A stretch of DNA of 64,000 bases from IMG/VR virus record IMGVR_UViG_3300045199_000074, one strand, 5' to 3'. Source of the stretch: a virus. Position numbers and translations under genes: made by a program. Below the pieces are notes generated by a model. That model was not told where the DNA came from. It was given only the letters and a program-made list of their open reading frames with translations, and ran no database searches. Shown in pieces: positions 7,841-59,255 of this stretch (position 1 is the stretch's first letter; each line of letters starts with the position of its first letter).

Positions 7841-9007
7841 ATGAAAATCGACATTGCAGACCCTGGCATTCATGTAATTGGTGAACTTTTATCTAGCGGC
7901 GGGTATCAATCTCGTCTCGTTGGAGGTGCTGTTCGCGATATGCTAATGGGTATGAAACCTAAAGATATGGATTTAGCGACCGATGCATTGCCAGAAATCG
8001 TAATGGAATTAGCATCTAGACAGGGTTATCGGGTGATACCAACAGGTCTTCAGCACGGCACTGTGACAATCGTTTATGATGACATCGGTTATGAAGTGAC
8101 CACTCTTCGAAAAGATGTCGACACAGACGGCCGTCATGCAACTGTGGAGTATGTCACCGATTTTGCCGAAGATGCTGCGCGTAGAGACTTCACCATTAAC
8201 GCTATGTCAGCCTCTGTTGATGGCGAAGTTTATGATTATTTTGGTGGTTTGAAGGACCTTGAGGAAGGTCGTGTCCGATTTGTAGGTGATGCACACCAGC
8301 GTATTGAAGAGGATTATCTGCGTATCCTGCGCTTCTTTCGTTTTCGAGCTCGGTTTGGAGGCGAAGAGACCGAACTCGATCTGAAGGCGATCAAAGATAA
8401 TTCCCACGGCCTTTCCGGCATCTCAGTTGAGCGTGTCTGGAGTGAAATTGATAAAATATTACAATATTCAAATGGTACAGACCAGTTGGCGTTAATGGCC
8501 GATTTGGGTGTTGCCCAGGTTGTCGGCCTCCCGATTGACGAAGACAACATCACAATTGCGCGTGATGCAAGGGAGTTTGGCGCTCGTTCATCTGTGATGT
8601 TGGGCATTCTGGCAGGAAATGAAGATTATGCTGGAAGTCTTGCAACGCGCTGGAAGTTGTCCAATTCCGAGATGAAAGATGCAGTCTTGGCGTCTCAAAT
8701 CATTGCTATTTCCGAATACGAACCCCATTACTGGATGACTCAGGCAGTAAACGGTCTTGATCCCACTGTTGCATGTCCTATTCTGTCTGCAATTGGTGCT
8801 CATGAAGCTGCAAAGGCTTTGTCTGGAGATATTCCCGTTTTCCCTCTTAAGGGGCGTGATCTCATTGGTTTAGTCGATAAAGGACCGACGATGGGAGCTG
8901 TTTTACGTGATGCCAACTCAAAGTGGATTGACTCCGGATTTAAGCTTACAAAAGAAGAGCTCATTGCCGATATTGTTAATGTTGGCCCAACTGTTGGTAG
9001 GCTGTAA
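7841..9007 (+). CDS. cca: Class II CCA-adding tRNA nucleotidyltransferase
   Basis: VGGAVRD, DMDLAT, EVTTLR, DGRH loop, RRDFTINAM and EDYLRILRFFRF motifs; start after GAGG. Confidence 0.92.
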   Translation: MKIDIADPGIHVIGELLSSGGYQSRLVGGAVRDMLMGMKPKDMDLATDALPEIVMELASRQGYRVIPTGLQHGTVTIVYDDIGYEVTTLRKDVDTDGRHATVEYVTDFAEDAARRDFTINAMSASVDGEVYDYFGGLKDLEEGRVRFVGDAHQRIEEDYLRILRFFRFRARFGGEETELDLKAIKDNSHGLSGISVERVWSEIDKILQYSNGTDQLALMADLGVAQVVGLPIDEDNITIARDAREFGARSSVMLGILAGNEDYAGSLATRWKLSNSEMKDAVLASQIIAISEYEPHYWMTQAVNGLDPTVACPILSAIGAHEAAKALSGDIPVFPLKGRDLIGLVDKGPTMGAVLRDANSKWIDSGFKLTKEELIADIVNVGPTVGRL

Positions 9008-9291
9008 TGGCGCTTAAACTTAAAAAGCCCAGTTCTAAGCCGAAAGACCAGGATGATGAGCCTTCATTTAATCCACCGAATAATTCATGTGGTATAACTC
9101 CAGCAGTTAAATTGGGGGGTCGTAGGTTCCCGCCACCACCTCTAGGAAGTGGATTCTCTGAATTTTTAGACTGGTCTTCAGATGAGAGCCTTTGTCCAAC
9201 TCCTGAACAGGAGATTTTAGCATTTAATTTATGGATCGGAATTGATATCGAAGATGTTAATCCTGATCCGACATCATCAATAAAAATGTAG
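9007..9291 (+). CDS. Hypothetical protein (Pro-rich, acidic tail ending SSIKM)
   Basis: TAATG overlap with cca. Confidence 0.65.
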   Translation: MALKLKKPSSKPKDQDDEPSFNPPNNSCGITPAVKLGGRRFPPPPLGSGFSEFLDWSSDESLCPTPEQEILAFNLWIGIDIEDVNPDPTSSIKM

Positions 9292-9402
9292 ACGAGAGTG
9301 CGTTTTAAGCAGTTTTTATTTGCGATTTAAAATCTCATTATCTATTGTTGTTTTATAATTAATAATTGCCCCTTTAATTTGGCTTGGGAGATAAAGCCTG
9401 GT

Positions 9403-9930
9403 ATGTCTATTTTAGATATATGGAAAAAATCCGCTTTAATAGATGTTGAAGCTAGCGGTTTAATGCAAGGTTCATTTCCTGTTGAAGTTGGCTGGCTTGT
9501 TGATGACGTTTTTGGTCACATGGTGATAGACCCATCGAAGCATTGGGATACATCAAAATGGGACTCTGATGCGGAGACAATGCATGGTCTTTCTCTGCAT
9601 TGGCTTTCAATGAAGGGTGTTCACCCAGTTCGTGTGGCCTCCCGATTGAACCTTTCTTTTAAAGGCAAAAAAGTATTTTCAGATTCTCCTGATGCTGATT
9701 TGAATTGGCTTAATGAACTTCATCGTGCCGCTAATGTGAAAAGAGAGTATGAAGTTGAAAGTATTGGTAAACTGCTCGGCTATTTAGGAGTTAAGGCTGA
9801 GAAAGCTTATGATATTTTTGACCAGGTTCAAGAAATAATGCCGTCAAGAGGTCGTGCTCTGGTGGGTGTCAGGTATCTAAAAACGGTAGTTGACTGTGCT
9901 ATTCGTGAGGTTGGCGGGAATGAAGTATAA
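9403..9930 (+). CDS. DEDD-family 3'-5' exonuclease-like protein
   Basis: IDVEASG...FPVEVG and ETMHGL motifs; start uncertain (9379 or 9403). Confidence 0.7.
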   Translation: MSILDIWKKSALIDVEASGLMQGSFPVEVGWLVDDVFGHMVIDPSKHWDTSKWDSDAETMHGLSLHWLSMKGVHPVRVASRLNLSFKGKKVFSDSPDADLNWLNELHRAANVKREYEVESIGKLLGYLGVKAEKAYDIFDQVQEIMPSRGRALVGVRYLKTVVDCAIREVGGNEV

Positions 9931-10222
9931 TTTTGTGATAGTTCTGCTGCTTCTCACGTCGTTTTCTTCGGTTAGCTTTGCTCAACATAAAATAACGATT
10001 ACACGTGTAGAATCACTTCGCGCTGCTCCATCGGTTGGTGTTTCTCGCGATTCACTTGAAAACATCCCTGGGACTGTTCTTGCTCCAATAGATTCAAAGC
10101 CAATGCGTCCTATTCCTGAATATGTTTACTCATTCAGGTCTATTGGTAATATTCCGATGCCGTCTCCAAATCCATTACGCGTCGAATTTTGCGAGGTTGA
10201 TATCTATCCGTTTGAAGAATGA
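9920..10222 (+). CDS. Hypothetical secreted protein
   Basis: Signal peptide MKYNFVIVLLLLTSFSSVSFA. Confidence 0.6.
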   Translation: MKYNFVIVLLLLTSFSSVSFAQHKITITRVESLRAAPSVGVSRDSLENIPGTVLAPIDSKPMRPIPEYVYSFRSIGNIPMPSPNPLRVEFCEVDIYPFEE

Positions 10223-10265
10223 TGTGCAGTTAAATACAAATTTTGAAAATTAGGATTAACCGTAA

Positions 10266-10613
10266 ATGTCGCTATCGTATGAAATAATTGGAAATGTTGT
10301 CGTAAAAAATAGAACTAGTGGGCGACAAGACTATGTTTGCCATCTAGGGGATAATATTTCAGTTGGCATCGATCAATCTGATGGCCAGCTTATTGCCCAT
10401 GGAGATATAACTAATGTTGCGAGAATTATTCAGACCGCTGAAAATTATGCTCAAAACGCATCTTCTGATGCTGGTATCAGTGTTGATTTAACTATTGTAA
10501 GCTTTCCTGCAACAGAAGAAACTGTTCTCGCCCTGAACAATGCTGTTAATGGTGTTGAAAACATTGATGCTCTGTTTGATACGGCGTATCGGGACAGCTT
10601 AGCCTTCAGGTGA
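10266..10613 (+). CDS. Hypothetical protein
   Basis: 115-aa ORF in operon orientation. Confidence 0.7.
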   Translation: MSLSYEIIGNVVVKNRTSGRQDYVCHLGDNISVGIDQSDGQLIAHGDITNVARIIQTAENYAQNASSDAGISVDLTIVSFPATEETVLALNNAVNGVENIDALFDTAYRDSLAFR

Positions 10614-10719
10614 TGTGTAGTTATTATTGTAACTTCGCATTTTTATTAATTTAGTCCACTTTTGTTGTTGATTATTTATTTATTATCGATATATTGGCCT
10701 CGAATAATAGGAGCCGATA

Positions 10720-12390: not shown

Positions 12391-12547
12391 TCGTCTAATC
12401 CCGAATTCTGGATAATCGACGATGACGTCATCTGCTACTTCAAGTCCGTTATCGATAGCGTGTTGTATCGCTATCTTGTGAGCTTTCGTTAGGTGTGCTC
12501 GACCCGCTCTTGTCTGAAATCAAGCTTTTTAGATAAATGAATTTTTA

Positions 12548-13015
12548 TCATGTTCCGAGTTTACGTGCATATGCGGAGTTTTGCATGTCCTCGTCTGTGT
12601 GAAATGAAAACGCTTCCGGTCTGGCCAAGTGCGGCATCATTCTGTGAAATAACGTAACCAAGCGTTCCACCAGCGCCTCATCGCGATAGGCCAATTCAAG
12701 ATCATGATCTTGAAACTTCCGGTATCCCACGCATTTCCACGGCGCTTCGAGGCAATTGAAGCGCGCGATAAATGCCGCAGGCGGCATCGGACCATCGTAA
12801 TCCCAAAGTTTTCCATCCAGAAGGACGACAGCATGGCCAACTTCATCGTTCTCGTTTACAAGACCGAATAATTCTCCGCCAATGACTGACTTTAGGGCCT
12901 GAGCAACGATAACGCAGCCACCATCGAATGGTCCACAATCAATGGTGGCCTGCAAATCGGAGTGAAATTCTTCGTCGATCAGTTTACGCTGCATGTTCCA
13001 ACTGCGAAAATTCAT
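12548..13015 (-). CDS. Hypothetical protein with a putative Cys-His-Asp triad
   Basis: GGCVIVAQAL...HAVV...WDYDG. Confidence 0.7.
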   Translation of the reverse strand: MNFRSWNMQRKLIDEEFHSDLQATIDCGPFDGGCVIVAQALKSVIGGELFGLVNENDEVGHAVVLLDGKLWDYDGPMPPAAFIARFNCLEAPWKCVGYRKFQDHDLELAYRDEALVERLVTLFHRMMPHLARPEAFSFHTDEDMQNSAYARKLGT

Positions 13016-13052
13016 CTGAACCTGCCTCTCAGTCTATCACCGTCGCTTTCAA

Positions 13053-15419
13053 TTAAAGTGAAGGGCCAGATCTGACCAAGTCATGATCCAAATGTGCTTC
13101 GTAAGCCTTACGAAGGGCAATAATATCGGCTTTCAAGGTGTCGTTGCTCTGCGTCAGACACCAATCACGGAAGCTATGAGCAAGCTCGATCTCAGCGTCA
13201 TCAGGTTGGCCTCCATCTGGTTTGCGTGTATGCGACCATGTGAATTCATTACCCTTTTCTCGTGATGCAACGATACGATCTTTCACGCTGCGCATCTGCT
13301 TCCAGAACGCATAAAATGGCAGCTTGACCTTGGTCATGTAGCCAACAGCATCTTCGATCACCAAGCCTTCCACATGCTCACCGCCAACGCGGTAGTTCAT
13401 GTCAGTAGTCGCCTTCTTGTGCCAGCCAGCGAACGAAGCAGCATTCTGGAATGTCATCGCTAGCTTCTTCGTTTCGAGACCAAACTTTCGGCCAACAGCC
13501 TCGACCACGCTGAAACCTGCCTTCTCAAAACTTTCCGAACGACGAATAATATCGAGCAAAACTATTTTTGGTTTATCGTACTCGATCATGTGAGGGTCAT
13601 TGAGCGGATCAATCACTTCCCACGTCATCGAAGATTCTGTATCACGAAGATAGCGACGGATTTTCTCCAACTGAACGGCGCTCAGCTGGTTAATTGCAAT
13701 ATTCTTGAAAATATCAGCGAAATCACCATCTGGCGTGGATTTTGAAGCGATAAACAAGCTGTCTGTCTTTTCATCGTAACCCATATTTCCAAGGAAACCG
13801 TTATATTTCACGTAAAGTTTGATCGGGAATTGCATGTTTTTGGCAAGGTTTGCTATTTCAGTTTCTTCCCGTTCGCCCACATTGAAAAATTTATCGTATC
13901 CACGAGAAACTATTTTGCTCGTTTTCCGTTCAAGAAAAAGCCCGCGCGCCTTCACAACAACATCATCCCAAGAACGGTCAAAAAACACCTTCTTGGTGAA
14001 ATTAAGCGAATATACATGCGGGAATCGTTCGCTCGACTTTTCTCGAACGCCTTCATGTTCATGCATAGACTTCAGGAGACTTGAATCCATCTCTGTCGAT
14101 TTTCCGTCAGGATTGATAATCCAATGGGGCAGCATTTTACGTTGAGCCTTTCTAACTTCTGTAATCCTGGTTTCGAGAGCCAGTCGCTCCTTGAGTGGTC
14201 GATAGACATGGTTCTTGAATGCTTTGGTGTTCCAACCATTGCCATCGAGAATGCAAATTCGCAGATTGCCGCCGTGTTCGACTGAGTCTTCGAGATTGAA
14301 CGAGTGTTCGGTGGCCGCAATATCAACATTGCCGTGATTGCGGTGTCCGTGAACCTGGAAACCTCGCTTGCTGTTGCGCTCGAACTGCTCATCAATCGGG
14401 TCTTCCCAGTGGCCTGTGCCATGGGAATATTGATTCAGAGAAATCAGGTGAGGCTTATCGGGGAATGTGCTTAATCCTGCGTGGGTAACGAGAACCTCAG
14501 CGCCCTTGAAGCTGTACTGGAGAAATTCCTTAGCCTTCTGACATACGGCTTCAGCATCAGCAGGAGTTATGCCTGCTTCGATAAGCTGCGGAAGCGTTCT
14601 GAGGGCGAACTCTCCACTTTTTGCATCTTCACCACGCGCCCAACGGTCGAGATGATCTTCATGATTGCCCCATAGAAGGGTGACGTTCTCCCTGTGAAGA
14701 GCATTGTCGACGAACCAGCGCATCACTTTGCCGTTTTCGATGCCTCGATCAAGCAGGTCTCCCACAAAGACGTACTTGTAGTCGTCATCAAAACCATTCG
14801 CGAGTGGCCCGCCTTCTCCCGCCAATACGGTGAAGCAACCTTGCAGGTCTCCAATGTGAATTACGCCCTTATAGCGGTCGCTAAAGTCATGAACGGGCTC
14901 ACGTAGCCACGCATCCAGTTCACTTATGTGACTACCGTCTTCCTTGCCGTTAATAATTGTAATGCCATCGACATCGTCTCTTATGCCAGCTTCGATGAGC
15001 TGTGCATGCATTTCTCTAACTCTGAACTCAGAAACCCGGTTAACTTCCTGGCGTTCACTGTTTCGTTTCAACGCCAATTCTACTGGAATTGAAGACATAT
15101 CAAGAACAGCGATTTCATACCGATGTGGTTTTGCCATATCAGCTAAACGCTTCAAGTTTGAACGTTCTATGAGCGTCGTGTCTATTGCTAGTGTCTCCCC
15201 TCTAGACATCCGCTCCGATGCGAATTGATTAAGCATCGCGAAAGCTCTCTCATTGACATCCTGATTAACGATCATTTGCCCTTCGCTTGTCAGGAATGGT
15301 GCCGCGATTGTCGATCTGATATTGTCGGCGGACAGCGTCCATTGCTCTATCCCTATTGCCTTGAGAGCGTGTGACTTTCCAGATCCAGGTTGGCCGCGCG
15401 TGATTATTAATTTTCTCAT
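13053..15419 (-). CDS. Trifunctional RNA repair enzyme: polynucleotide kinase + metallophosphoesterase + Rnl1-type RNA ligase
   Basis: P-loop GQPGSGKS; GDLQG, GDLLDRG, GNHE; ligase motifs KFFN, KYNG, EGLV and KVK. Confidence 0.88.
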   Translation of the reverse strand: MRKLIITRGQPGSGKSHALKAIGIEQWTLSADNIRSTIAAPFLTSEGQMIVNQDVNERAFAMLNQFASERMSRGETLAIDTTLIERSNLKRLADMAKPHRYEIAVLDMSSIPVELALKRNSERQEVNRVSEFRVREMHAQLIEAGIRDDVDGITIINGKEDGSHISELDAWLREPVHDFSDRYKGVIHIGDLQGCFTVLAGEGGPLANGFDDDYKYVFVGDLLDRGIENGKVMRWFVDNALHRENVTLLWGNHEDHLDRWARGEDAKSGEFALRTLPQLIEAGITPADAEAVCQKAKEFLQYSFKGAEVLVTHAGLSTFPDKPHLISLNQYSHGTGHWEDPIDEQFERNSKRGFQVHGHRNHGNVDIAATEHSFNLEDSVEHGGNLRICILDGNGWNTKAFKNHVYRPLKERLALETRITEVRKAQRKMLPHWIINPDGKSTEMDSSLLKSMHEHEGVREKSSERFPHVYSLNFTKKVFFDRSWDDVVVKARGLFLERKTSKIVSRGYDKFFNVGEREETEIANLAKNMQFPIKLYVKYNGFLGNMGYDEKTDSLFIASKSTPDGDFADIFKNIAINQLSAVQLEKIRRYLRDTESSMTWEVIDPLNDPHMIEYDKPKIVLLDIIRRSESFEKAGFSVVEAVGRKFGLETKKLAMTFQNAASFAGWHKKATTDMNYRVGGEHVEGLVIEDAVGYMTKVKLPFYAFWKQMRSVKDRIVASREKGNEFTWSHTRKPDGGQPDDAEIELAHSFRDWCLTQSNDTLKADIIALRKAYEAHLDHDLVRSGPSL

Positions 15420-15568
15420 TTTTCTTTTCTATATTTATTCCGTTTTCGTGATAATAATTATAGATATCTTTGCAAGAGCCAAGCCCAAATAAGTTGACAT
15501 TTTTATTTTTTAATAGAATTATTGCTTAATTAAAGCGAGCCTCGTTTTTCGTGTCGGGAGTTTATTGA

Positions 15569-16396: not shown

Positions 16397-16399
16397 ATT

Positions 16400-22769: not shown

Positions 22770-23957
22770 TTATCGCCTGCCAAATGTCATTCTTGGAGAC
22801 GGGCGTTCGAAACTTTCATCGTCGTCAATGCCTCCAGACGAGTTACCATAATTTCTGCCTGCTGAAGTTGGGGTAGATGGTTCTGGATTTTCAAAACCTC
22901 TGCGATCAACACGTTCTGTGTTCATGCGTTTTACAGATTCATCATCAAATAGCTTCAAAATAGTAGTTGGAGTGTTGCCATAGCCACGTTTGTTAGTTGG
23001 TAATCGTTCAATGCTCACAGGATCACGTTTAAAAACAGGAGCCATTGATGAGATGACAGGAATGATTTTACCCGTCTTGCCTCCGAATGCCCATTCTTCT
23101 TCCATTGAAATAACTACAAGTGAGGGTAGGAAACCAATCTGGTTGCCAATCGCGTATTGCGAACTGAAGTTTCCGATTACTGATTTACCTGTTTCATTTC
23201 TTGGATTCACGTCTTTGATCACTTGCTCCTTACCCATTTGCAATGACCAGGCGGGTATTATTTCAAGCAAGTAGTCCGAAGCAGGTGTAACTCCGGCATG
23301 ATTTAGATCATCGATAAGATGATCAATAGTCTTTTCATGGGTATGGAAAAACGTTTCTGTCTGCCCGTGGCTATCACGAATAAAAAATCCTGGGTTCCCT
23401 CCAGGCCAACGTTCACTTTTGATACGATCAAAAGCTACACGAAGCCCTTCTTCAGAATTAACAACCATCGCTTTAGCGCCATCTGTAATAATTCCGGACT
23501 GCAAAGCACCTTTTTTATTCACGTTAGCTTTAGTCGGCCGCGTCATCGCGGTCATTACCTGTACTTCTCCAAGAAGTTTGTCGTGGACACGCGCAACCAC
23601 AGCACCGACCATTACCTTATTATTTTCTACATAGCTGCGGTCAAATCCTATTACATCGCCTTTTATGGCAGAAGAAATCCATTCATTGCCAGCAATTGCT
23701 GTTTTTAGTGAATTACGATCTGAAATATGACCTGTTGCTTGTTTCAAAGCAATTTTTTGCCCTGCCTTAAGCCCGTATGCATCAACAAGAAGGTGGCCTT
23801 TTATTTCATCGCTGCCAATAACTTCATCTATGGTCACAAAAACTGGCAATCCAACAGCGAGTTTTTCCTTACTTTTTTCAACAGCCGAGTTAAATGCGGC
23901 TTCACCACTCGCTCGAAGGCTAAATCCATTAGGTCTTTTAGAATTTGATAAGACCAT
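22770..23957 (-). CDS. Hypothetical protein
   Basis: GGAG RBS before MVLSNSK; ~395 aa with an acidic tail ending MTFGRR. Confidence 0.75.
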   Translation of the reverse strand: MVLSNSKRPNGFSLRASGEAAFNSAVEKSKEKLAVGLPVFVTIDEVIGSDEIKGHLLVDAYGLKAGQKIALKQATGHISDRNSLKTAIAGNEWISSAIKGDVIGFDRSYVENNKVMVGAVVARVHDKLLGEVQVMTAMTRPTKANVNKKGALQSGIITDGAKAMVVNSEEGLRVAFDRIKSERWPGGNPGFFIRDSHGQTETFFHTHEKTIDHLIDDLNHAGVTPASDYLLEIIPAWSLQMGKEQVIKDVNPRNETGKSVIGNFSSQYAIGNQIGFLPSLVVISMEEEWAFGGKTGKIIPVISSMAPVFKRDPVSIERLPTNKRGYGNTPTTILKLFDDESVKRMNTERVDRRGFENPEPSTPTSAGRNYGNSSGGIDDDESFERPSPRMTFGRR

Positions 23958-24025: not shown

Positions 24026-24102
24026 TGGAAGACGCATTCGGGATTGAACCGAAGACCTGCGGTTTAAGAGACCGCCGCTCTAACCTGCTGAGCTATACGT
24101 CC
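24026..24102 (-). tRNA. tRNA-Lys(CTT)
   Basis: GCGGT-CTCTTAA-ACCGC; encoded CCA; G1:U72 and U73. Confidence 0.88.
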
Positions 24103-24116
24103 ATAGTGAGAACAAT

Positions 24117-24194
24117 TGGTGAACGCGGTGGGATTCGAACCCACGTAGACAGGGATTAAAAGTCCCTCGCTAAAACCTACTCAGCTACGCGTCC
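24117..24194 (-). tRNA. tRNA-Lys(TTT)
   Basis: AGGGA-CTTTTAA-TCCCT; T-loop TTCGAAT; encoded CCA. Confidence 0.9.
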
Positions 24195-30780: not shown

Positions 30781-32088
30781 ATGGCAACATTGGCGATATC
30801 TCGACCACAAAATGCTTCTCTTTTAAAGAGAATTACCAATACGCTGTCTGATTTCAGCAAGAACTTAATGGGGACAACTTCATTAGTGTCTCCCTCCATG
30901 GCAACAAAAAAAATTGAAAATCCATTTGGCAATTTTGGTGTTTTAGCTTCAGCCGACAAATTTAAAGCTCATTCGAAGCCTATGGTTAGGTCATCTATTC
31001 TTTTCACCATCGATGATGCGCGCAAGCGTATATCGGAATACGTCGAAAACAAGTTCAAACCTGATAGCATTGCTGAACTCAAAGAGTATCTTGCGGAAAA
31101 ATTCTTGCGTCTTGAAACTTGGAAATTGGCTCCAGGTCCAATGAATATGCTTGTTGATACGAAGACAAGCTCTGCCACGCCTGCTGCCGCAGTCGATAAG
31201 CGTCTTTCTTACTGGAATATGCTTGAAGAAAGATTGCGGGGTGATTTACGTCGTGAAATCGGTACAACTGAACCTGCAAAAGCATTTGGAAGTTGGGAAG
31301 GCATGTCTATGTCGCTTTCTAACTCTCGCGGGAATATTGGTTACTCCATTTCAAAAGGACAGGCTTATATTGGCAAGGTTTTTGCAGACCAGAATGATCG
31401 TAGAAGCGTTTCTGAAATTGTGTCCGATGCTAAACAACAAGGTGTGGAGCTAGTTCTTCCTACGGATGACGGTACAATCAACGGGCGTAGATTTCCAGGT
31501 CTGCCATTCCTGAAGAAAATGGAAACTATGAAGGCTGAAGTTGTACATTCAGGTTTGAAACACGATCTGATGGCAAATGCGTTTGGTGGTGTCGGCTTGG
31601 TGGAAACTATTGAAAACAAGATCAATGCCAAAAATGTACGTGACGCTTCTCTTGGTGACAATAATATGGATGCCGCTGAGGAATTCGATTTATCGCAATT
31701 CATCAGGAGTGAACAAGAACCATTTTCGACTATGGTTACAAACTCAAACGTTAGTTCATTTAGCGATTTTGGTAACGAGCTAGAAGAAAATTATGAGACT
31801 ACACGCAATTTAAGTATTCGTGCATATTCTAATAGTTCGAGCGAATTTATTGTTTATGATCGCGACTTTGATGAGGCCACGCAGATTCATTTTACTGATA
31901 TGCCAGCTGGTCGATACGAACGAGAAAATGTTGATGGTGTTGTAGAAGGCTACACTGATATCTTGGATGATGGATCATTAAGGCATTTTGATCGCCGTGG
32001 AAATGTCGTAGAAATGGATAATGGTCTAGATAATGATGATCAACATGACTACGAAAATGAAAATGGTCGCAATAAGTTCGCTAGGTAA
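30781..32088 (+). CDS. Hypothetical protein with an acidic C-terminus ending NKFAR
   Basis: GGAGGAGGT RBS; 435 aa. Confidence 0.8.
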   Translation: MATLAISRPQNASLLKRITNTLSDFSKNLMGTTSLVSPSMATKKIENPFGNFGVLASADKFKAHSKPMVRSSILFTIDDARKRISEYVENKFKPDSIAELKEYLAEKFLRLETWKLAPGPMNMLVDTKTSSATPAAAVDKRLSYWNMLEERLRGDLRREIGTTEPAKAFGSWEGMSMSLSNSRGNIGYSISKGQAYIGKVFADQNDRRSVSEIVSDAKQQGVELVLPTDDGTINGRRFPGLPFLKKMETMKAEVVHSGLKHDLMANAFGGVGLVETIENKINAKNVRDASLGDNNMDAAEEFDLSQFIRSEQEPFSTMVTNSNVSSFSDFGNELEENYETTRNLSIRAYSNSSSEFIVYDRDFDEATQIHFTDMPAGRYERENVDGVVEGYTDILDDGSLRHFDRRGNVVEMDNGLDNDDQHDYENENGRNKFAR

Positions 32089-35083: not shown

Positions 35084-35995
35084 ATGCGATTACTTTTGGA
35101 GCTTAATTCTGTTGATAGAAGTGTCACTGGGAATGGTCGTACCCAAATCCGCCTGACAGGTTTGGATAAGAATGGTCGCAATAGTCGTGCAATAGCTTAT
35201 GGCTATACAGCTGATAACATATTGAAGAGCCTTTATAAAATTGTTTCGCCAACCGATGATCTCAAAGATCATAGTGTTACTATCGATCTTCACGGTGGTT
35301 GGAAAAATGGCAAAGAATACGAGCGAGACGGCAAGAAGTTTACTTTTCGATATTTTGAAATTGAACAATTCCAGTTTCTCCTTGGTCCTGCTCTTGAACT
35401 TCAAAAAATTCGTCAGGATTCTCTAGCGGCGTTTCATCGTGCGGAAGCTGCCAGAGCGGAAGGTGATTTTCGAAGCGCATACCGAGAACTTCTCGAACAG
35501 ACAGGTAAAACATGTAATATGATCGATGAGGTTTCTGAAATTCTGGAGAGTTTAAATCAATATGAGGATCTCCCAGATGACATGGAACTCACGGCAATTG
35601 AAGAGCAGTTTTCCTCGCCTGAGGCTTTGGCATTAAAGAAGTTTTCGTCTATGAACGGTATTGAAGATGTCATGGAATTGGCAGCTAATTCTCCACAAGA
35701 GGAGATAGCCTCAGATGAAACCTCTGATCATGTTTCTGAGGATATGGTTGCAGATCAAGACGACGATTACGTCTTCGGTGAGATTGTTGATGAGACTTCT
35801 GATGAGAATAATCCAGCAGTAGAAGGTGATATTGAACAATCAGATGTGTTGGACGACGAGCCAGCATCTGATGCTGAAAATAAGGCATCAGGTCCCGCTA
35901 AACCCGCACCTGCGTTTTCTTCCAAACCTTCTTCTGGATTTGGTCGTCCAAGTGGTGGCTTCGGAAGACCAAGCGGTTTCGGCCGTCCAGGCTGA
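35084..35995 (+). CDS. Protein with a putative SSB-like OB fold, acidic linker and FGRP repeats
   Basis: AIAYGYTA...IDLHGGW...YERDGKK pattern resembles SSB; ends SSGFGRPSGGFGRPSGFGRPG. Confidence 0.6.
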   Translation: MRLLLELNSVDRSVTGNGRTQIRLTGLDKNGRNSRAIAYGYTADNILKSLYKIVSPTDDLKDHSVTIDLHGGWKNGKEYERDGKKFTFRYFEIEQFQFLLGPALELQKIRQDSLAAFHRAEAARAEGDFRSAYRELLEQTGKTCNMIDEVSEILESLNQYEDLPDDMELTAIEEQFSSPEALALKKFSSMNGIEDVMELAANSPQEEIASDETSDHVSEDMVADQDDDYVFGEIVDETSDENNPAVEGDIEQSDVLDDEPASDAENKASGPAKPAPAFSSKPSSGFGRPSGGFGRPSGFGRPG

Positions 35996-36086: not shown

Positions 36087-36845
36087 TCACGGCTCAATTT
36101 TAATTATGCTTTCGTTTAAGTTCTCTAGTGAAATTGTTTTGAAGCGATGGTTTCTTCCGCAATCATCAAAAGCTACGACTGACAGTACCCCTGATCCAAA
36201 ACAACCGCTGTCCATTGCAATTCTGTTTTCGTATTCAGTTGGATTTTTCTTATCTGGAGAGTGTCCGTATACGACAACCTTTCCAAAGTTGTGGTTTGAA
36301 CGGCTGAATTCTCCTCTGATCCACATCAGATCATGGAGTGATTGATCTTCAAGCATTATTCCTGGCTTCATTCCTGCATGAACATAGATGTGTGTATCGG
36401 TTTCAGCAGACATTGGAAGCGAACGTAGAAACTCAGCATGCTCCCAAGGAACGAATTCCTGAAGTTCGTCTGGTATCGGATTATACAGAGGATTCCATCC
36501 GTAGCTTTGTAAGGTCTGTTGTCCACCATGTTCCCACCAAGCTGTTGCCATTTCGTGTGATGGGTTGAACCAAACCGATGAGAACATATCGTCATGATTA
36601 CCCTTGATCGGGTGCCATGACATGTGTTCGTCTTCTGGTCCTGAAATTAAAAGATCAATGACATCTTTTGCGCTTGGGCCGCGATCAACGTAGTCCCCGA
36701 GTAAGTGAACTCTTCCTTGGGTTCCGCTTTGCAGGGCGTCGGCCGCGCACCAATCGAGTGCGATCTTTAGCTGTTCTACACAGCCATGTACGTCGCCTAT
36801 TGCGTAGTCAGTAATATGGTCTGAACTTTTGAATTTTTGATGCAT
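36087..36845 (-). CDS. PPP-family (lambda-type) Ser/Thr metallophosphatase
   Basis: IGDVHG, GDYVDRG, GNHD, VHAG, GHS and DSG motifs. Confidence 0.88.
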   Translation of the reverse strand: MHQKFKSSDHITDYAIGDVHGCVEQLKIALDWCAADALQSGTQGRVHLLGDYVDRGPSAKDVIDLLISGPEDEHMSWHPIKGNHDDMFSSVWFNPSHEMATAWWEHGGQQTLQSYGWNPLYNPIPDELQEFVPWEHAEFLRSLPMSAETDTHIYVHAGMKPGIMLEDQSLHDLMWIRGEFSRSNHNFGKVVVYGHSPDKKNPTEYENRIAMDSGCFGSGVLSVVAFDDCGRNHRFKTISLENLNESIIKIEP

Positions 36846-36903: not shown

Positions 36904-38037
36904 CTATGGCTTGAACGATGATTTCTCCTCAAGCTTTTCGAAAAGCTCCCTGCCCTTATCTTCGTCGCAATCAACTCCGATATTTCTAGCAGACAGGAAA
37001 GCTTCATCCAGATCGGCATCCAAAAATTTGGCATACATAGCTGCAAGCGTTCCTACAAATATCGGTCCATGCGAAGCTTCTCGAACTTTTCGATCTAATT
37101 TCACTACATAATGCGCGAGTTCATGGATTATTGTGTTACTGGTCATCATGTGACTGGCGAGCACTATCCCTTTGCCCACATTGAAGTAGCTGTGATTTAC
37201 TAAATTTGATGGACCTTCTTTGATCGGCACTTCTTTGACGCCCAACTTCTCGCAAACTTGTTTGGCGTAGTCCCTGCATTCATCAATCGTATTGAAGCGG
37301 TCCTTTCTGTAATCAAACGTCCACTCCCACCGATAGACCAATTCACGCTGGTAATCGCGAATACGGTTCGACTTTCTCCTATCTGGAGGATTAAATCGTT
37401 TGGCTATCCTCTTGGCTTCTAATTCAGCCGCTTCCATGAAGTCGTGTTGACTTAAAACTTTGATGTCTCGCGTGTGCCGGGTGTCTGGCCTCCATCCAAC
37501 GAGAATTTTTTTGTCGTCCTCGAAGAGCACTATCTCGCCCCGATCATTGGCTGGTATGGACATCTTTATGCCAAAGCGAATGTCGGCGTACTCTGGAGGG
37601 CTAATGGGGCTTGGTAAGTGCCGCGTGCGTTGACCAGGCTTGGGGTTGTCAACCAAGATAACTGTGTTGGCAGCGAAACCTTTCGTGCTGGATGGCAGGT
37701 CTAGAAAGACACGTCCGTTGTCATGACGTTCATAGAATTCATAGATTTCGGTGAAGGGATGAGTGTCGAATTCGAAAGCAGATGCTGAGATTAGCGACAT
37801 TCCATCGCCATGAACCAAGCCTTCGTACAGATCACGTGCGGTGAAAATCCTGTGCCGATGAGTCGTGTAGAATTCTATCCAGTTTTTGGATGCTACTGAT
37901 GAGCTGAATGGCCCCCATATGCGTCCGTCATCCGATGTAACAGAATGAATTATTTCGGGTACGAAAAGACTGTTTTTCGCGTCGATGTTTTCAAATTTAT
38001 TGTTTGGCGCAATGGGCGCATCCAATAGATGAATCAT
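36904..38037 (-). CDS. Protein with a C-terminal SprT-like HExxH zinc metallopeptidase domain
   Basis: TIIHELAH...HGPIF. Confidence 0.7.
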   Translation of the reverse strand: MIHLLDAPIAPNNKFENIDAKNSLFVPEIIHSVTSDDGRIWGPFSSSVASKNWIEFYTTHRHRIFTARDLYEGLVHGDGMSLISASAFEFDTHPFTEIYEFYERHDNGRVFLDLPSSTKGFAANTVILVDNPKPGQRTRHLPSPISPPEYADIRFGIKMSIPANDRGEIVLFEDDKKILVGWRPDTRHTRDIKVLSQHDFMEAAELEAKRIAKRFNPPDRRKSNRIRDYQRELVYRWEWTFDYRKDRFNTIDECRDYAKQVCEKLGVKEVPIKEGPSNLVNHSYFNVGKGIVLASHMMTSNTIIHELAHYVVKLDRKVREASHGPIFVGTLAAMYAKFLDADLDEAFLSARNIGVDCDEDKGRELFEKLEEKSSFKP

Positions 38038-38091: not shown

Positions 38092-40554
38092 TCAGTCTGT
38101 CAGCTGCCCTTCTTTTAGACGTGTAGACAAGCCTGTAAATCGTTCGTTGGCCTCGGTCGTTCTTACTGAGTGTAAGACAGCCTGATCGTGGCCAACGACA
38201 ATACAGAGCTTCTTGGCGCGCGTCACGGCGGTGTAAATCAGGTTTCTTGTTAGCATATGCTTATGCGCCCATGGACATACGAAAATTACGACAGGAAACT
38301 CGCAACCTTGACTCTTGTGAACGGTGGTAGCCCATGCCAGTTCAATGTCATTAATATCATCCGGACTATATAATGCTTCAAATCCAGAATAATCAACGAT
38401 GAGGTAGTTTTCTTCGTTGTTATCCTTATTGAACCGTTTGCCAACGCGAACAACTGTGCCTACCTCGCCATTGTATACCTTTTTCACATAATCATTTTTC
38501 AAGTGCATGACACGGTCGCCGATAGAAAATTCACGCTTTCTAATTTCAACAGTCTCTGCATTGCCAGAAGGGTTGAGGGCTTGCTTTAGCTTTTGATTTA
38601 AAGCGAGAATGCCTAAATCTCCAACTCGCATAGGTGAAAGAACCTGTACATCTGTGATCGGATTAAACCCCATTTCCTTTACTTTTACAGACATGAAATC
38701 AACGACAGTGTTGGCAAAAGATTCAGGGTCACCCACGGATTTAGAATCCGAGAATACCTCGAAACCATTCAAATCGTCTTTCCCGTCGAGCGGGTGTTTA
38801 CCAGAATTGATATTCGCGGCTGCAACCACAATTCCGCTATCACCCGATTGGCGATGAACAGTTTTCAGGCGAGCGACAGGAATAGAACCAGACGCAATGA
38901 GATCACGAAGTACTTGACCAGCACCAACAGATGGAAGCTGGTTTACGTCACCAACAATGGTAACAGCTGCATGAATGCTTACGGCATCCATAAATGCTTG
39001 CCCCAATCGAAGGTCTACCATCGAAAATTCGTCAATGATAATGCGATCTTCAGGAAAAGGATTCGAGGCATCATATTCGAAGCCGCCTTTTTCAGATGAG
39101 AAGCTTAGGAGACGATGACAGGTACTTGCTACATGTCCTGAAGCTTCGAATAGACGCTTTGCTGCACGGCCCGTTGGAGCTGCTAGAATTGTTTCCTGTT
39201 CCAGTGCTTCGATAGCATGAACAATGACTTTTTGAGTTGTCGATTTTCCTGTACCAGGGCCGCCCGTGATAATCGAGATTGGATTCATCACAGCCATTAC
39301 TGCGGCATTTACCTGACTTTCGTCCCTATTGACCTTCAATTCGACAACAGCGTTTTCAACGACAGTTCTAGCCAGTTCTTCTGGAATTCTGGGGCCACTC
39401 TCAATCATCTTAAGTAGGCGTTTGGCCAGATTGCTCTCGGCTTGAAAGAGACCATCTGTGTAGAATAATCCAGTGATCTTATCAGCAACAATTCCACCAT
39501 CTCTGACAACGTTGGTGATGGCATCTTTGATAAGTTCTTCATCAACATTCAACAAGCGACGTGCTTCACCGACAAGCGCTTCCATAGGTAGTCCACAGTG
39601 TCCTTCTCGGCCTGTTTTCTGTTCTAGTGCATAACGAACACCCGAATTGAGGCGGGCAGGACTGTCCTTTGCATGTCCAGCGTCCATGGCAATTTCGTCT
39701 GCTGTTGAAAAGCCAATACCATCAATGGTTTCGGCTAATTCCCACGGCCTCGTCTGCACGACTCTTCTGGCAGCTGCACCATACCGCTTAATAATCTTGG
39801 CAATAGTCATTTCACCAAGACCAAATCTTCCTAGAAATTCAATTAGCTCAGGTTGTGCTGCATTGCAGTTCCAGGCTTCTGCAATTGCTTCTGCTCTTTT
39901 CATCGGAATGCCAGATTTTACAAGCTTGTTATGGTCGGTAATTGCATCCAGGATGTCATCACCGAAATATTTGGCGATCTTTTCAGCTGTTGATTTACCG
40001 ACACCTGGAACAGATCCCATTTTCAACCAAGCTACTACACCTTTAGCTCCCTTAGCGATTTCCATCATGAAAATGGCAGCCTTAAAGGTATCTTTTCCTT
40101 TGTACTGAGACCACTGTCCCTTAGCGATGATACGATCACCACGCTTAGCTTTCACATTGCTAGTTGCTGCCACAGTCGTGGATTTTCCGCCGTCCACCTT
40201 TACGCTGTAAACAGCGTAGCCATCAGACGTTTCATAAATAACACGTTCGATACGACCAATCACTTCTTGTAAAGTGGGTTCATTCTTTACCACTAATTGT
40301 GGTGCAGTTTCTTTAACTTCAGAAGGTTGATGGAATACATCCTCATCCTGAGGCTCTGGTTGCACAACTTTTTTTAATCCAAATGTCGAAAAAGATTTTG
40401 GTCGGCCAAAACCATGCGGCTGTGGCTTCACAGGAGCGTTAAATAAATCACCCTGATTTACATTGGAATTAATAGTTTGATCCGCTTTAGAAGTCGCGGC
40501 AGGAGCCTTATTTTTAAGGGATAATACTGCTGCAGGCGGCCGCTTAAAATGCAT
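38092..40554 (-). CDS. recD2: RecD2-family SF1B helicase
   Basis: N-terminal OB/HhH region, GGPGTGKS, APTGRAA, DEFSM, TVHKSQG and YTAVTR motifs. Confidence 0.92.
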   Translation of the reverse strand: MHFKRPPAAVLSLKNKAPAATSKADQTINSNVNQGDLFNAPVKPQPHGFGRPKSFSTFGLKKVVQPEPQDEDVFHQPSEVKETAPQLVVKNEPTLQEVIGRIERVIYETSDGYAVYSVKVDGGKSTTVAATSNVKAKRGDRIIAKGQWSQYKGKDTFKAAIFMMEIAKGAKGVVAWLKMGSVPGVGKSTAEKIAKYFGDDILDAITDHNKLVKSGIPMKRAEAIAEAWNCNAAQPELIEFLGRFGLGEMTIAKIIKRYGAAARRVVQTRPWELAETIDGIGFSTADEIAMDAGHAKDSPARLNSGVRYALEQKTGREGHCGLPMEALVGEARRLLNVDEELIKDAITNVVRDGGIVADKITGLFYTDGLFQAESNLAKRLLKMIESGPRIPEELARTVVENAVVELKVNRDESQVNAAVMAVMNPISIITGGPGTGKSTTQKVIVHAIEALEQETILAAPTGRAAKRLFEASGHVASTCHRLLSFSSEKGGFEYDASNPFPEDRIIIDEFSMVDLRLGQAFMDAVSIHAAVTIVGDVNQLPSVGAGQVLRDLIASGSIPVARLKTVHRQSGDSGIVVAAANINSGKHPLDGKDDLNGFEVFSDSKSVGDPESFANTVVDFMSVKVKEMGFNPITDVQVLSPMRVGDLGILALNQKLKQALNPSGNAETVEIRKREFSIGDRVMHLKNDYVKKVYNGEVGTVVRVGKRFNKDNNEENYLIVDYSGFEALYSPDDINDIELAWATTVHKSQGCEFPVVIFVCPWAHKHMLTRNLIYTAVTRAKKLCIVVGHDQAVLHSVRTTEANERFTGLSTRLKEGQLTD

Positions 40555-50600: not shown

Positions 50601-53766
<3,166 letters not shown>

Positions 53767-53781
53767 TACGTTCTCCTAAAT

Positions 53782-54177: not shown

Positions 54178-54187
54178 CGCTTCCACC

Positions 54188-54412: not shown

Positions 54413-54680
54413 TTCTAACTTCCTTTTTAGTTGTTTATTTAACCATGAGGTGCTCGCAGACAAAGGTTAATTAAACAAGGGTTTCCACCCAAGTTTGATA
54501 TTCCTATGTATCTGGGAAATTTATGACCGCAGACAGATCACGCATTCTCTATATATTGTTGAGAATATACGGGATATTTGCGAATGAAAAGGCATTTTTG
54601 GTTGCAAATTTTATTGACCACAATGTTTTTTCACTCATAAATTCCTTCGAATTTTATTCCTTTCTCTTTGAACACCACTC

Positions 54681-54727
54681 ATACTATCTATAGTATATCT
54701 ATCGGCGCATGGCACAAAATCTTGGTC
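54681..54727. promoter_or_regulatory. Tandem NrdR boxes upstream of nrdHIEF
   Basis: ATACTATCTATAGTAT (54681-54696) and GCACAAAATCTTGGTC (54712-54727) resemble acaCwAtATaTwGtgt and start 31 bp apart. Confidence 0.7.
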
Positions 54728-54862
54728 ATGAAAATTATATCGATACATTGGTTGACTCGGCCGATATTAAGCTGGCTTTGTGTATATTTTTGGCTTAATT
54801 ATTTTTTCGATATAATCCTAAAGCCTAATGATTTCAATGGTTAAAAAAGGTGCGTCAAGTTG

Positions 54863-56308: not shown

Positions 56309-56437
56309 GATAATTCTCCAAAATTGATGGGTTCAGCAGCCGCAGCAATACGGAGACCTTACTCCTTTCTCATAATTCTTAATCGAGTTCAATGATTTAT
56401 TTGAAAAACCGCTAATTTCTGTGACAATAGTCGAAAA

Positions 56438-57604
56438 ATGGGAAAACAAATGTTCAATAAAATGCAAAAGTTCATTTCTAAAAACAAAGATTCGATAATT
56501 TCTCAATTTACCTCAAAGGCAGACGCATTCCTGCCCGATCCTCTTTCGATAGAAGATCGTATTTATGGCTGTCTTTATGGTGGCGCTGTGGGTGATGCAC
56601 TTGGCTATATAGTGGAATTCGATTCCATTTCTACAATTCGGAAGAACTATGGAACGAGTGGAGTCTCCATGCGTGCAATTTCGCTTGTGTTCCCAATTTG
56701 GGAGCGCTGTCTGGTTAGTGACGACACCCAAATGACGATGTTCACGGCAGAGGGTGTTTTGGTGGCCCATCAACGGTGGGGAGATCGTCTTACTTCAGAA
56801 CGTGTCTTGGATTGCATTCGTGATGCCTATCTTGATTGGTATCTAACCCAGCAAACAAGCCCTTCGCAGGTTCCTGTCGGGCATCTGGGGCATTCTCAAT
56901 TGATGAGGGCTAATCGAGCACCAGGTATGACGTGTCTTTCGGCCTGTAAGGCTGGAGCGATAGGCACCGTTGAGCGACCGCTAAATGACTCAATGGGGTG
57001 TGGCGGTGTTATGCGGGTCGCTCCAATTGGATTCCTGCACCCTTCTGACCCTGCACACAGCTTCACGCTCGGCGTTAAGGCGGCCGCTATGACCCACGGA
57101 CATCCTATGGGGTATATTCCTGCTGGGGCATTGAGCTGGCTGATCAATAGGCTTGCTCAAGGCGAAAGCATGAAGGCAGCCGTCTTTGAGCTGGAGGAAT
57201 ACCTCAGAGGGGTAGAAAACGCTGGTCTGATGCGAACGCTCATTCTTTCCGCGATGAAGATCGCCCCGATCTCAGAAATCGCTCCTGAACATGTTGAGGT
57301 GCTTGGTGGCGGGTGGGTAGGACATGAATGCCTTGCCATCGCAATTTTGGCCGCCCTTGCCGACGTTCCCTTGGAGCGTAAATTCGAGATTGCGGTCAAT
57401 CATTCTGGAGATAGCGACTCAACTGCAGCGGTGCTTGGCAACCTGATCGGCGCAGAGGTTGGGCATCGTGCTTTGCTGGAGGTTCCTGCATACAGATCGA
57501 TGACATCGAAAATGGACGTCGCGCCGCTGCTGGAGCCATTGGTCAAAGATTTTTCTGACTTGATACAAAGGTCTTTGCCTGCAGGGAGTGCTACTGATGA
57601 ATGA
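56438..57604 (+). CDS. ADP-ribosylglycohydrolase (DraG/ARH family)
   Basis: GDALG, SDDTQMT, GCGGVMR, THGH and GDSDST motifs. Confidence 0.9.
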   Translation: MGKQMFNKMQKFISKNKDSIISQFTSKADAFLPDPLSIEDRIYGCLYGGAVGDALGYIVEFDSISTIRKNYGTSGVSMRAISLVFPIWERCLVSDDTQMTMFTAEGVLVAHQRWGDRLTSERVLDCIRDAYLDWYLTQQTSPSQVPVGHLGHSQLMRANRAPGMTCLSACKAGAIGTVERPLNDSMGCGGVMRVAPIGFLHPSDPAHSFTLGVKAAAMTHGHPMGYIPAGALSWLINRLAQGESMKAAVFELEEYLRGVENAGLMRTLILSAMKIAPISEIAPEHVEVLGGGWVGHECLAIAILAALADVPLERKFEIAVNHSGDSDSTAAVLGNLIGAEVGHRALLEVPAYRSMTSKMDVAPLLEPLVKDFSDLIQRSLPAGSATDE

Positions 57605-58235
57605 CGAGATCATCAGGTCGGCTTTGCTTCGTCAGTTTGCAAAGAAACATGCGAATTCGGACACCGTGATCGTGAACGAGCTTAAGGTGGCCAGAGGCTC
57701 CTCACGGCTCGATATTGCTGTACTCGATGATCGTATCAATGGCTTCGAGATAAAGAGCGACCATGATACACTTTCTCGTCTTCCGTCTCAGTTGCGCAAT
57801 TACAACCATGTCGTGGATAGGATGACTATTGTTGTTGGAGAACGCTATCTCGGGAAAGTCTTGGCTATGGTCCCAGAATGGTGGGGCGTGATGCAGGCTT
57901 CGCCAAAAGGAGACGGCGAAGCAGTTGTGAAAACAGTTCGACGTCCGAACCTGAATAGGTCGATCAATGCACGTGGATTGTTAGAGCTGCTTAAGAGAGA
58001 TGAATTGGTCGGTGCTTTGCACAAGTTTGGCCTCGAAAAAGGCCACTCGAAGATGACTATGTGGGACTTAATTTACCGAGCTGAAAATAAGATAAAGCGT
58101 TCTGATCTTTTGCCAATTGCGATTAGGAATATGAAATTTCGCGCAACTAGGCGGTTGGGTTCAGGTGGCGCATTTGTAGAAACAGCAATTGACTGCCGTC
58201 AGGATAGAAATTGCTTGACCAAAACCGTGGTTTAA
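57597..58235 (+). CDS. sce7726-like PD-(D/E)xK nuclease-fold protein
   Basis: RLDIAVL...GFEIKSDHDTLSRLPSQ...WWGV. Confidence 0.75.
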   Translation: MNDEIIRSALLRQFAKKHANSDTVIVNELKVARGSSRLDIAVLDDRINGFEIKSDHDTLSRLPSQLRNYNHVVDRMTIVVGERYLGKVLAMVPEWWGVMQASPKGDGEAVVKTVRRPNLNRSINARGLLELLKRDELVGALHKFGLEKGHSKMTMWDLIYRAENKIKRSDLLPIAIRNMKFRATRRLGSGGAFVETAIDCRQDRNCLTKTVV

Positions 58236-58249
58236 ATAAATATCAATTT

Positions 58250-58444
58250 ACTCTTTTGTTGAGGACCCAGGGGGTCTACTGCTTTCTCCGTAAGGACGGC
58301 AGAGGAGTCTAAAGAAATACCAACGGAATGAGCTTAGACCTTCCGAATGCTCATCAAAAATGTGGAACCGCTAAGATCGATAGGGGCGGCATCGACAGGA
58401 AATTGAAGTGGTCTCGTCTGCAGTTATGGCGCTTCAATTTCTTG
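58250..58444 (+). ncRNA. Candidate structured ncRNA with tandem pseudoknots
   Basis: TTGACC at 58215; hairpins, two H-type pseudoknot pairings and a long terminal hairpin. Confidence 0.45.
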
Positions 58445-58469
58445 AACTATTTCAATTATCATAAGTGTT

Positions 58470-59255
58470 TTAAGGCTCAACACCTAGCTCAAACGTTGTA
58501 ATAGGCTCCATTTTTTCAACGTATATGTCTCCAAGTACTTCCTTCATGCGATCAAAATGCTCGTCAGACGTGAAAACGACTGTCGGACGATGGGTCGATA
58601 CGACGTCGACAACCAAAGTTCCATAGGACGTTATGGTCGACGGCTTGGAAACCTCATCAGCAGGAAAATCCGCTAGCCACATCTCGAATTGTTTTTTGTC
58701 GATCCATTTGCCATTAAGGAGGCTCTCCGTATCTTTGATCGCAGACACTGCTTCGGAAAGTCCGATTTCACACGCGGCCTTTACTGGATCGATTCCGTTC
58801 TCGGTCGCGAGGGTTGTAATGCGGAGAATAGCTGGTTTTGTAATTATGCAATCTTTATAGCGAGGAGATACATAGGCATTCCTGTCGACATAAAGGCCGC
58901 CCATTCTGTTGGTGGCGTGTGCCTTGATGGTGATAAAGCCTTCATTCAGTTTGCGTATGTGAACAGACACTGGCTCTCTTATGCTCTTCGTGGCCTTGCA
59001 GCGTTTCTGAATTTCAAATGTGGCATCAACGAGAGGTTTCATCAGTTGGGTTGCGCGCTCTTGAAATCCGTCGAATAGATATCCTCTTAATTCGTCATCG
59101 ATTGGTAGTGCAGTTGGTTCCTCGCGGCCGATGAAATTGTACGCTTTGTCGACCTCAGGAAACTCTTCCAAGAGCTGCATCATCACAGGTGCATATAGCC
59201 TGATATGTTCATCCAGCAATTCAATGATATTGATGTTGTGATTTTTTGAGGTCAT
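58470..59255 (-). CDS. Hypothetical protein
   Basis: AAGGAG RBS; 261 aa. Confidence 0.75.
   Translation of the reverse strand: MTSKNHNINIIELLDEHIRLYAPVMMQLLEEFPEVDKAYNFIGREEPTALPIDDELRGYLFDGFQERATQLMKPLVDATFEIQKRCKATKSIREPVSVHIRKLNEGFITIKAHATNRMGGLYVDRNAYVSPRYKDCIITKPAILRITTLATENGIDPVKAACEIGLSEAVSAIKDTESLLNGKWIDKKQFEMWLADFPADEVSKPSTITSYGTLVVDVVSTHRPTVVFTSDEHFDRMKEVLGDIYVEKMEPITTFELGVEP

Follow-up and report, generated by a model that had tools for sequence, protein, structure and literature searches.

A replicon-wide C-terminal tail on proteins of DotA-bearing megaplasmids, similar in layout to the Dot/Icm signal

The window analyzed here, a 64-kb stretch of DNA with a GC content of 40 to 50% (IMG/VR virus record IMGVR_UViG_3300045199_000074), encodes the type IVB secretion component DotA and a series of unrelated proteins that finish in a similar short tail. 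A preliminary description had listed 14 such tails and read them as Dot/Icm-like signals on protein cargo delivered with conjugation. In this work, we show that the tail, hereafter the tag, is real and replicon-wide and constitutes a protein-level C-terminal label on a large, soluble, non-housekeeping protein subset of a megaplasmid family. Its layout fits the Dot/Icm signal, as had been proposed, and it is a putative member of that class. The earlier interpretation as a whole was partly supported.

A C-terminal tag on a family of megaplasmids

Besides DotA, which the preliminary description had correctly placed in the window (Table 1), the stretch encodes gyrase B, RecA, NrdHIEF, ThyA, DHFR, MutL, UvrD, RecD2, a sigma factor, and tRNA-processing enzymes. 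Three close DotA relatives were found, on Mesorhizobium sp. SP-1A contig2 (1.19 Mb; DotA 51%), Pararhizobium sp. BT-229 ctg003 (1.60 Mb; DotA 42%), and Rhizobium leguminosarum pRlX5 (1.32 Mb; DotA 45%). The Mesorhizobium contig, the closest relative, is syntenic with the window (GyrB identity, 94%), and we infer that the window is part of a DotA-bearing Rhizobiales megaplasmid. Replicon-wide tests were run on these relatives, using the entire Mesorhizobium contig, 400 kb of the Mesorhizobium chromosome, and 800 kb of the Pararhizobium contig, and the distribution test used named plasmid records. Genes were called with a purpose-built dicodon model, and all counts refer to complete genes of at least 70 amino acids above a coding-score cut.

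An unsupervised two-class mixture, fitted by expectation maximization (EM) to the last 16 residues of the 1,148 C-termini of the Mesorhizobium replicon, converged in 12 of 12 random starts on one and the same class, comprising about 27% of the C-termini. This class consists of a linker rich in Glu and Asp, Ala, Ser, Thr, or Gly at positions -4 to -6, [PMFL] at -3, [KSRG] at -2, and [MPLFI] at -1, next to the free carboxyl group. Hydrophobic residues or Pro made up 0.82 of position -3 and 0.79 of position -1, and the four small residues made up 0.64 of position -4. The likelihood gain was 577, versus 278 to 301 for column-shuffled sequences, whereas the host chromosome showed no excess (232 to 271 versus 229 to 250). 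Met at -1 reached 8.5% on the replicon, versus 2.2% in the background and 0.3% on the host chromosome, and Pro at -3 reached 11.7% versus a background of 4.2%. Glu was enriched at -8 to -13 and Asp was depleted at -2 to -4, neither of which was seen on the chromosome; the acidic upstream block (0.25 versus 0.16 in Mesorhizobium) was also present in pRlX5 and in Bosea. Models trained on alternate loci called 130 of 586 and 111 of 562 held-out proteins, versus 22 and 24 of 467 chromosomal ones. The motif was bound to the free C-terminus, with 20.5% of proteins scoring at offset 0, 7.3% at offset 2, and 1 to 3% at other offsets. Mixtures of three and four classes did not resolve a second distinct tail class. 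Endings in Phe-Gly-Arg behaved in family tails as variants of the same tag, and Ala-Ala ends formed a separate C-terminal class on the same replicon. A strict score threshold of 4.62 was applied, with a posterior-0.5 cut for homologue comparisons.

The strict tag was carried by 235 of 1,148 proteins of the Mesorhizobium replicon, 73 of 741 of the Pararhizobium contig, 24 of 315 of pRlX5 (300 kb sampled), 18 of 234 of the Methylorubrum extorquens AM1 megaplasmid (250 kb sampled), and 22 of 86 of Bosea pANAM02 (100 kb sampled), that is, by approximately 8 to 26% of the sampled proteins on five DotA megaplasmids, with internal-position controls of 1 to 2%. Host chromosomes gave 2/336 and 1/131 (3/467 in total), and other plasmid contigs gave 3/198 in the Mesorhizobium host and 0/22 for one Pararhizobium plasmid contig. 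Given the purpose-built gene caller and a window list picked by eye, one might suspect an artefact of composition or of gene calling, or else a repeat in the DNA itself where genes end, but this is scarcely credible in view of these internal controls, the spread of the tag over replicons of 44 to 67% GC, and its presence on independent database proteins. Furthermore, synonymous codons vary within the tag, all three stop codons occur, and no DNA consensus was found 3' of the stop, and a DNA-level repeat or translational coupling was rejected on these grounds.

The 235 tagged Mesorhizobium proteins represent 204 families, and in the plasmid-clade phosphatase and CCA-adding enzyme the tag is added beyond the end of the fold. 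Of the 120 homologues listed for the window phosphatase, most of the 50 closest ones extend past the point where the others end, and the posterior-0.5 threshold was exceeded by 20 of these 50 versus 2 of 67 outer homologues (3 intermediate rows were excluded). For the CCA-adding enzyme (Cca), the figures were 38 of 74 plasmid-clade homologues versus 3 of 46 outer ones; the groups were split by rank in the match list, and plasmid-clade membership is presumed. The enrichment test suggested in the preliminary description thus gave a positive result against both host proteins and outside homologues of Cca and the phosphatase. Tag concordance between orthologues of about 40% identity and differing tail sequences was 18/50 versus 14/188 for Pararhizobium (p=2e-6), 8/19 versus 10/86 for pRlX5 (p=0.004), and 3/4 versus 4/33 for AM1. 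These comparisons indicate that tag status is inherited between orthologues while the tail sequences turn over.

In the window, the translations agreed with all 14 termini listed earlier. Graded with a model trained on the Mesorhizobium replicon minus the syntenic region, six carry the strict tag at the very end, four score above the strict threshold with one to three trailing residues, and four (Cca at 9007 and the proteins at 10613, 32088, and 58470) do not score in the window; the Mesorhizobium orthologues of these four scored 4.0, 9.3, 5.3, and 4.7, respectively (Table 1). The claim of 14 shared tails therefore holds directly for ten, and for the other four only through orthologues. Of the other window open reading frames, 0/49 scored at the end and 2/49 with an offset, and offset scoring called 19/467 host chromosomal proteins. 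As the 14-tail list had been hand-picked, an unbiased count was also made, in which 5 of 55 called genes scored (9.1% versus 1.8% at internal positions, p=0.003); the gene caller missed the 94-amino-acid gene ending at 9291. The reported lack of tails on housekeeping proteins was borne out for RecA, GyrB, ThyA, NrdE, and RecD2 (scores of -5 to -14), RecA having an acidic tail from which the motif is absent, and did not extend to a second RecD2 paralogue, which is tagged on the relative. The Mesorhizobium relative has two RecD2 paralogues: orthologues of the window RecD2 (38092-40554) are untagged, and the second (L046:4165-6762) has an extension of about 100 residues and is tagged in Mesorhizobium and Bosea and untagged in pRlX5.

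Table 1. Window genes for type IVB components and for proteins with the C-terminal tag or a related tail
Position	Strand	Product and tail	Basis
3800..4429	+	IcmV-like protein (weak), untagged	NF038219 E=7.4e-5, below cut-off
4799..6943	+	DotA/TraY type IVB secretion component, untagged	TIGR04346 236.8 bits (cut-off 100); tag score -7.1
7802..9007	+	CCA-adding enzyme with C-terminal extension (TVGRL), degenerate tag	Start inferred from orthologue; plasmid-clade homologues
9007..9291	+	94-aa hypothetical protein, strict tag SSIKM	Score 13.0; orthologue tagged
10266..10613	+	Hypothetical protein (SLAFR), window tail below threshold	Orthologue strictly tagged
12548..13015	-	Hypothetical protein (RKLGT), tag + 2 residues	6.1 at offset 2; paralogue on relative strictly tagged
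13053..15419	-	Kinase-phosphatase-RNA ligase (Pnkp/Rnl1-like), strict tag SGPSL	Model score
21704..22279	+	Hypothetical protein, strict tag STLKM	Model score
22308..22766	-	Hypothetical protein (TPALK), tag + 1 residue	7.0 at offset 1
22770..23957	-	Conserved beta-rich protein, disordered tail (TFGRR), tag + GRR	9.1 at offset 3; residues 362-395 pLDDT<50
30781..32088	+	Hypothetical protein (NKFAR), acidic tail, window end below threshold	Orthologues tagged (5.3)
36087..36845	-	Calcineurin-like (ApaH-like) phosphatase (IKIEP), tag + 2 residues	Orthologue strictly tagged
36904..38037	-	Hypothetical protein (weak HEXXH match), strict tag SSFKP	Model score
44980..45618	-	Hypothetical protein, strict tag AGPKP	Model score
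48092..49810	-	Pentapeptide-repeat protein, strict tag SIMRM behind long acidic linker	Model score
58470..59255	-	Hypothetical protein (LGVEP), window end below threshold	Orthologues tagged (4.7 and 12.1)

Several functional labels given earlier to these proteins were poorly supported. The "peptidase" rests on a weak HEXXH match (E=0.0067), and the "Cys hydrolases" had zero supporting matches. The "tRNA repair set" stands in so far as Cca and the kinase-phosphatase-ligase are tagged, and fails for Thg1 and RtcB, which are untagged. The window also holds 11 tRNA genes in three clusters (7068-7294, 24026-24194, and 59457-60406), which, beside Cca, Thg1, RtcB, and the RNA ligase, may be viewed as a plasmid-borne tRNA supply and repair set. 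The 395-amino-acid protein at 22770 has 37 relatives, and its predicted model (mean pLDDT, 86.8) ends in a 34-residue disordered tail. It had no PDB match at E<=0.001, the sole hints being weak, partial alignments to OB folds, and it is a candidate nucleic-acid-binding cargo or transfer protein. Atlas searches with the proteins at 22770 and 30898 gave no usable match or only matches below 0.9, and in PHROGs 2 of the 14 proteins matched, both to families of unknown function. Separately, the protein at 35084-35995 terminates in repeated Gly-Phe-Gly-Arg-Pro units, which are kept in the Mesorhizobium relative and had no family match.

Proteins that carry the tag

Tagged proteins are short (median of 213 amino acids), and membrane or signal-peptide proteins, predicted by a hydropathy rule, are scarce among them (7/235 versus 139/724, p=2e-11). 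In a Pfam scan covering 205 of the 235, 39 of the top 150 tagged proteins had a match. The families comprise PcfJ-like proteins, ART-PolyVal (3 of 6 matches above cut-off), AbiEii nucleotidyltransferases, LPD1, NUDIX, NADAR, GNAT, HD, DEDD exonucleases, RNA ligases, DprA, and RecX. Among BLAST paralogues, 6 of 6 ART-like, 5 of 7 AbiEii, and 11 of 16 PcfJ-like proteins (all 11 strictly) were tagged, with a separate tail on each. Some PcfJ-like paralogues lie in tandem arrays on the Mesorhizobium replicon (L024 and L027). For comparison, 100 proteins were drawn at random from the 546 untagged soluble ones, 43 of which had Pfam matches; they included gyrase, DnaK, a tRNA synthetase, regulators, Wadjet JetA, restriction subunits, SSB, a primase-polymerase, and apparatus proteins, and none was ART-PolyVal, AbiEii, or LPD. 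This sample also holds one NUDIX, one GNAT, one phosphatase, and one PcfJ protein; therefore, the tag is split by protein and not strictly by family. Tagged genes were mildly clustered (67 adjacent pairs versus 45+-5), and no shared promoter was found, the best k-mer reaching p=1e-4 among 818 tests. The bodies of tagged proteins (L004-L063) were also more acidic than those of untagged proteins (median net of 0.050 versus 0.017 per residue, p=5e-22), a figure uncorrected for membrane and DNA-binding proteins.

The tagged families, with their ADP-ribosyltransferases, AbiEii proteins, PcfJ proteins, and RNA repair enzymes, point to bacterial targets. Injection into plant, fungal, or protist cells in the manner of Legionella, which the preliminary description had left open, appears very improbable. 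The signal layout is as in Legionella, the hosts are soil- and plant-associated bacteria, and there was one dual-specificity phosphatase match, below cut-off; however, none of the 205 proteins scanned matched an ankyrin, F-box/U-box, LRR, or SET family, IcmW was not found, and transmembrane effectors are nearly absent.

The tag could also act as a C-terminal degron that keeps early or conflict proteins of the plasmid short-lived, read by host ClpXP, Lon, or a tail protease. Degrons typically have hydrophobic ends. Such a signal requires substrates in the cytosol and a C-terminus that is free and disordered, both of which were seen, and in AbiE pairs the tag is carried by toxin as well as antitoxin at two loci (a third has a near-threshold partner). 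Nevertheless, we regard a degron as unlikely: host proteins lack the tag, no ClpP or Lon protease domain was found on the two megaplasmid contigs, which leaves host proteases as candidate readers, and the known alphaproteobacterial degron end, Ala-Ala, forms the separate class described above. A Lon match at L004:13459 proved not to be a Lon protease domain.

Type IVB apparatus and the role of the tag

The replicon family carries a Dot/Icm-type apparatus. The Mesorhizobium replicon encodes DotA, DotG, two DotI, DotN, DotM, IcmT, DotC, DotH, a DotB-like ATPase, and a DotL-like coupling protein, assigned from weak Pfam matches; the DotL-like protein, DotM, and DotN are thus located on the related replicon, outside the window. 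A type IVB pilus set resembling that of IncI plasmids was also found, as were the mating-pair formation genes and coupling protein of conjugative MPF-I systems. The DotF model gave zero matches. Mapped through one pairwise alignment, three of the five DotM positions needed for binding of the acidic E-block in Legionella are mostly basic in the clade: the R314 equivalent is invariant (51/51 members), the R217 equivalent is Lys or Arg in 46/51, and the R197 equivalent is Arg in 31/51. In PMC5802825, all five arginines are described as needed, and DotM is suggested to co-evolve with different tails where they vary.

On this basis, we propose that the tag is a recognition signal for export by the plasmid's own type IVB coupling complex into contacted bacteria, a reading that, in our view, has an even chance of being correct. 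The DotL-DotM-DotN complex would read the last three to six residues on a disordered linker, the acidic linker would assist recognition in some lineages, and the tagged substrates would be threaded through the type IVB channel. In the recipient, modifying enzymes (ADP-ribosyltransferases, nucleotidyltransferases, acetyltransferases, and phosphatases), RNA and tRNA repair enzymes, and many small acidic proteins of no assigned function would make the cell ready for an incoming replicon of about 0.7 to 1.6 Mb. More tentatively, we suggest that the megaplasmids carry about 300 effectors directed at bacteria, a repertoire as large as that of Legionella, and that this ready-made set of modifying, anti-defence, and repair proteins, routed through the type IVB machine by one portable tag, might enter the recipient with or before the DNA.

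Several observations weigh against this proposal. Its main weakness is that the co-occurrence of tag and apparatus is not independent evidence, because the two share one lineage. MOBH, MOBP, MOBQ, and MOBF relaxases were found on neither related contig (G002:C2 and G001:C3), so the earlier phrase "delivered with conjugation" was not upheld, and the IcmW model matched 0/2 genomes. In DotM, the R196 equivalent is Asp in 44/51 members, the R315 equivalent is never basic, and the net charge of the cytoplasmic domain is 0 to -16. Pararhizobium and AM1 lack the acidic block and have tails dominated by Pro/Ala; unsupervised EM did not yield a clean class in Pararhizobium; and orthologue concordance in Bosea (5/10 versus 4/21, p=0.10) was not significant. 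SSB and the primase-polymerase, which are typical co-transferred proteins, are untagged, and a few apparatus proteins, such as the flagellar hook, score by chance. Finally, seven other type IVB plasmids showed no clear enrichment (2/24, 0/37, 1/20, 2/46, 0/37, 2/36, and 0/34); these were single 50-kb samples, small and often of accessory DNA, and therefore neither extend nor bound the range of the tag.

A near-complete type IVB apparatus with no recognisable relaxase of these four families may reflect either an unfamiliar relaxase or a protein-only machine. In the latter case, the tag would still be a type IVB export signal, serving a contact-dependent device for competition or manipulation like that of Pseudomonas putida IsoF (PMC9519443). 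The missing relaxases, the MOB-suite verdict of non-mobilizable for pRlX5, pANAM02, and the AM1 megaplasmid, and the presence of the tag on five AbiEii toxins and on six ART-like proteins are consistent with such a device. We consider it doubtful, since tagged Cca, RNA ligases, NADAR, DprA, and RecX would fit support of a recipient better than its killing, antitoxins carry the tag together with their toxins, and the IncI-like pilus set is present. A preprint describing linear plasmids of Rhizobiaceae that bear dot/icm genes reports that neither relaxase nor effectors were identifiable (10.1101/2025.05.29.656789).

Intracellular sorting, or another plasmid-encoded exit route (an adaptor, a plasmid-centred compartment, or flagellar-type export), is similarly improbable. 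The Mesorhizobium relative does encode AAA ATPases, a ParM-like actin, and flagellar-type genes (L060:9499-19867 and L061:2-19649; the hook assigned by Pfam and export, rod, motor, and flagellin genes by eye). However, flagellar and type III export rely on N-terminal signals, sampling of the other megaplasmids showed no flagellar homologues, Terminase_6N, the one terminase model used, was absent from both contigs, and there were no DotA relatives among viral contigs.

If export by the type IVB coupling complex is confirmed, conjugative protein delivery would involve up to a quarter of a megaplasmid proteome, chosen by a readable code, and hundreds of hypothetical proteins would become anti-defence or establishment candidates that can be listed from sequence alone. 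Methylorubrum extorquens AM1 would then offer a model for type IVB substrate choice, and host-targeting Dot/Icm signals might descend from a plasmid establishment system. Even under the alternatives, the literature searched offered no precedent for a replicon-specific address tag shared by about 200 unrelated families.

Comparison with known systems

The tag is apparently undescribed in the open text of PubMed Central and bioRxiv, to which the literature search was confined. IncI plasmids transfer the Sog primase. More generally, the proteins moved by conjugation systems bear signals of various kinds, either C-terminal or internal (PMC11288057; F and pED208 substrates in PMC8406263). The proposed role of the tag is like this co-transfer in that plasmid proteins would enter recipient bacteria and aid establishment, and some of the signals are C-terminal. 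These signals, however, differ from one another and have no motif in common, and their substrates are counted in tens, whereas here one motif occurs on an estimated 235 to 310 proteins, SSB is untagged, and a relaxase was not found.

The tagged set also resembles the polyvalent proteins of conjugative elements and phages, sharing ART-PolyVal, LPD1, and GNAT domains; ART and related domains are predicted by Iyer et al. 2017 (PMC5512222) to act upon delivery during invasion of a new host. Unlike polyvalent proteins, the tagged domains are solo, each with its own tail, and not fused into one large protein. The kib type IVB system of P. putida IsoF acts on bacteria, and one effector-immunity pair is described for it, with another C-terminal motif, FxxxLxxxK (PMC9519443).

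The closest parallel in layout is the Dot/Icm signal, from which the tag differs in being plasmid-borne and in having a far sharper three-residue end, rich in Pro and Met, with a basic or small residue at -2. On the megaplasmids, the acidic block is lineage-optional, IcmW was not found, and the DotM basic patch is partly kept; the cargo has bacterial-conflict rather than eukaryote-like domains and includes few membrane proteins, whereas transmembrane effectors make up about one-third in host-targeting systems (PMC12981334). The same source describes the Legionella signal as having small polar residues, terminal hydrophobic residues, and acidic residues depleted at the end and enriched upstream. 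Like the Legionella and Coxiella signal (PMC12981334 and PMC5802825), the tag occupies approximately the last 16 residues; Asp and Glu are scarce at its end and, in some lineages, enriched at -7 to -13, positions -4 to -6 hold small residues, and a hydrophobic residue or Pro stands at -3 and -1. As in the Dot/Icm system, it is found on hundreds of unrelated carriers, encoded on a replicon that also bears DotL-like, DotM, and DotN proteins.

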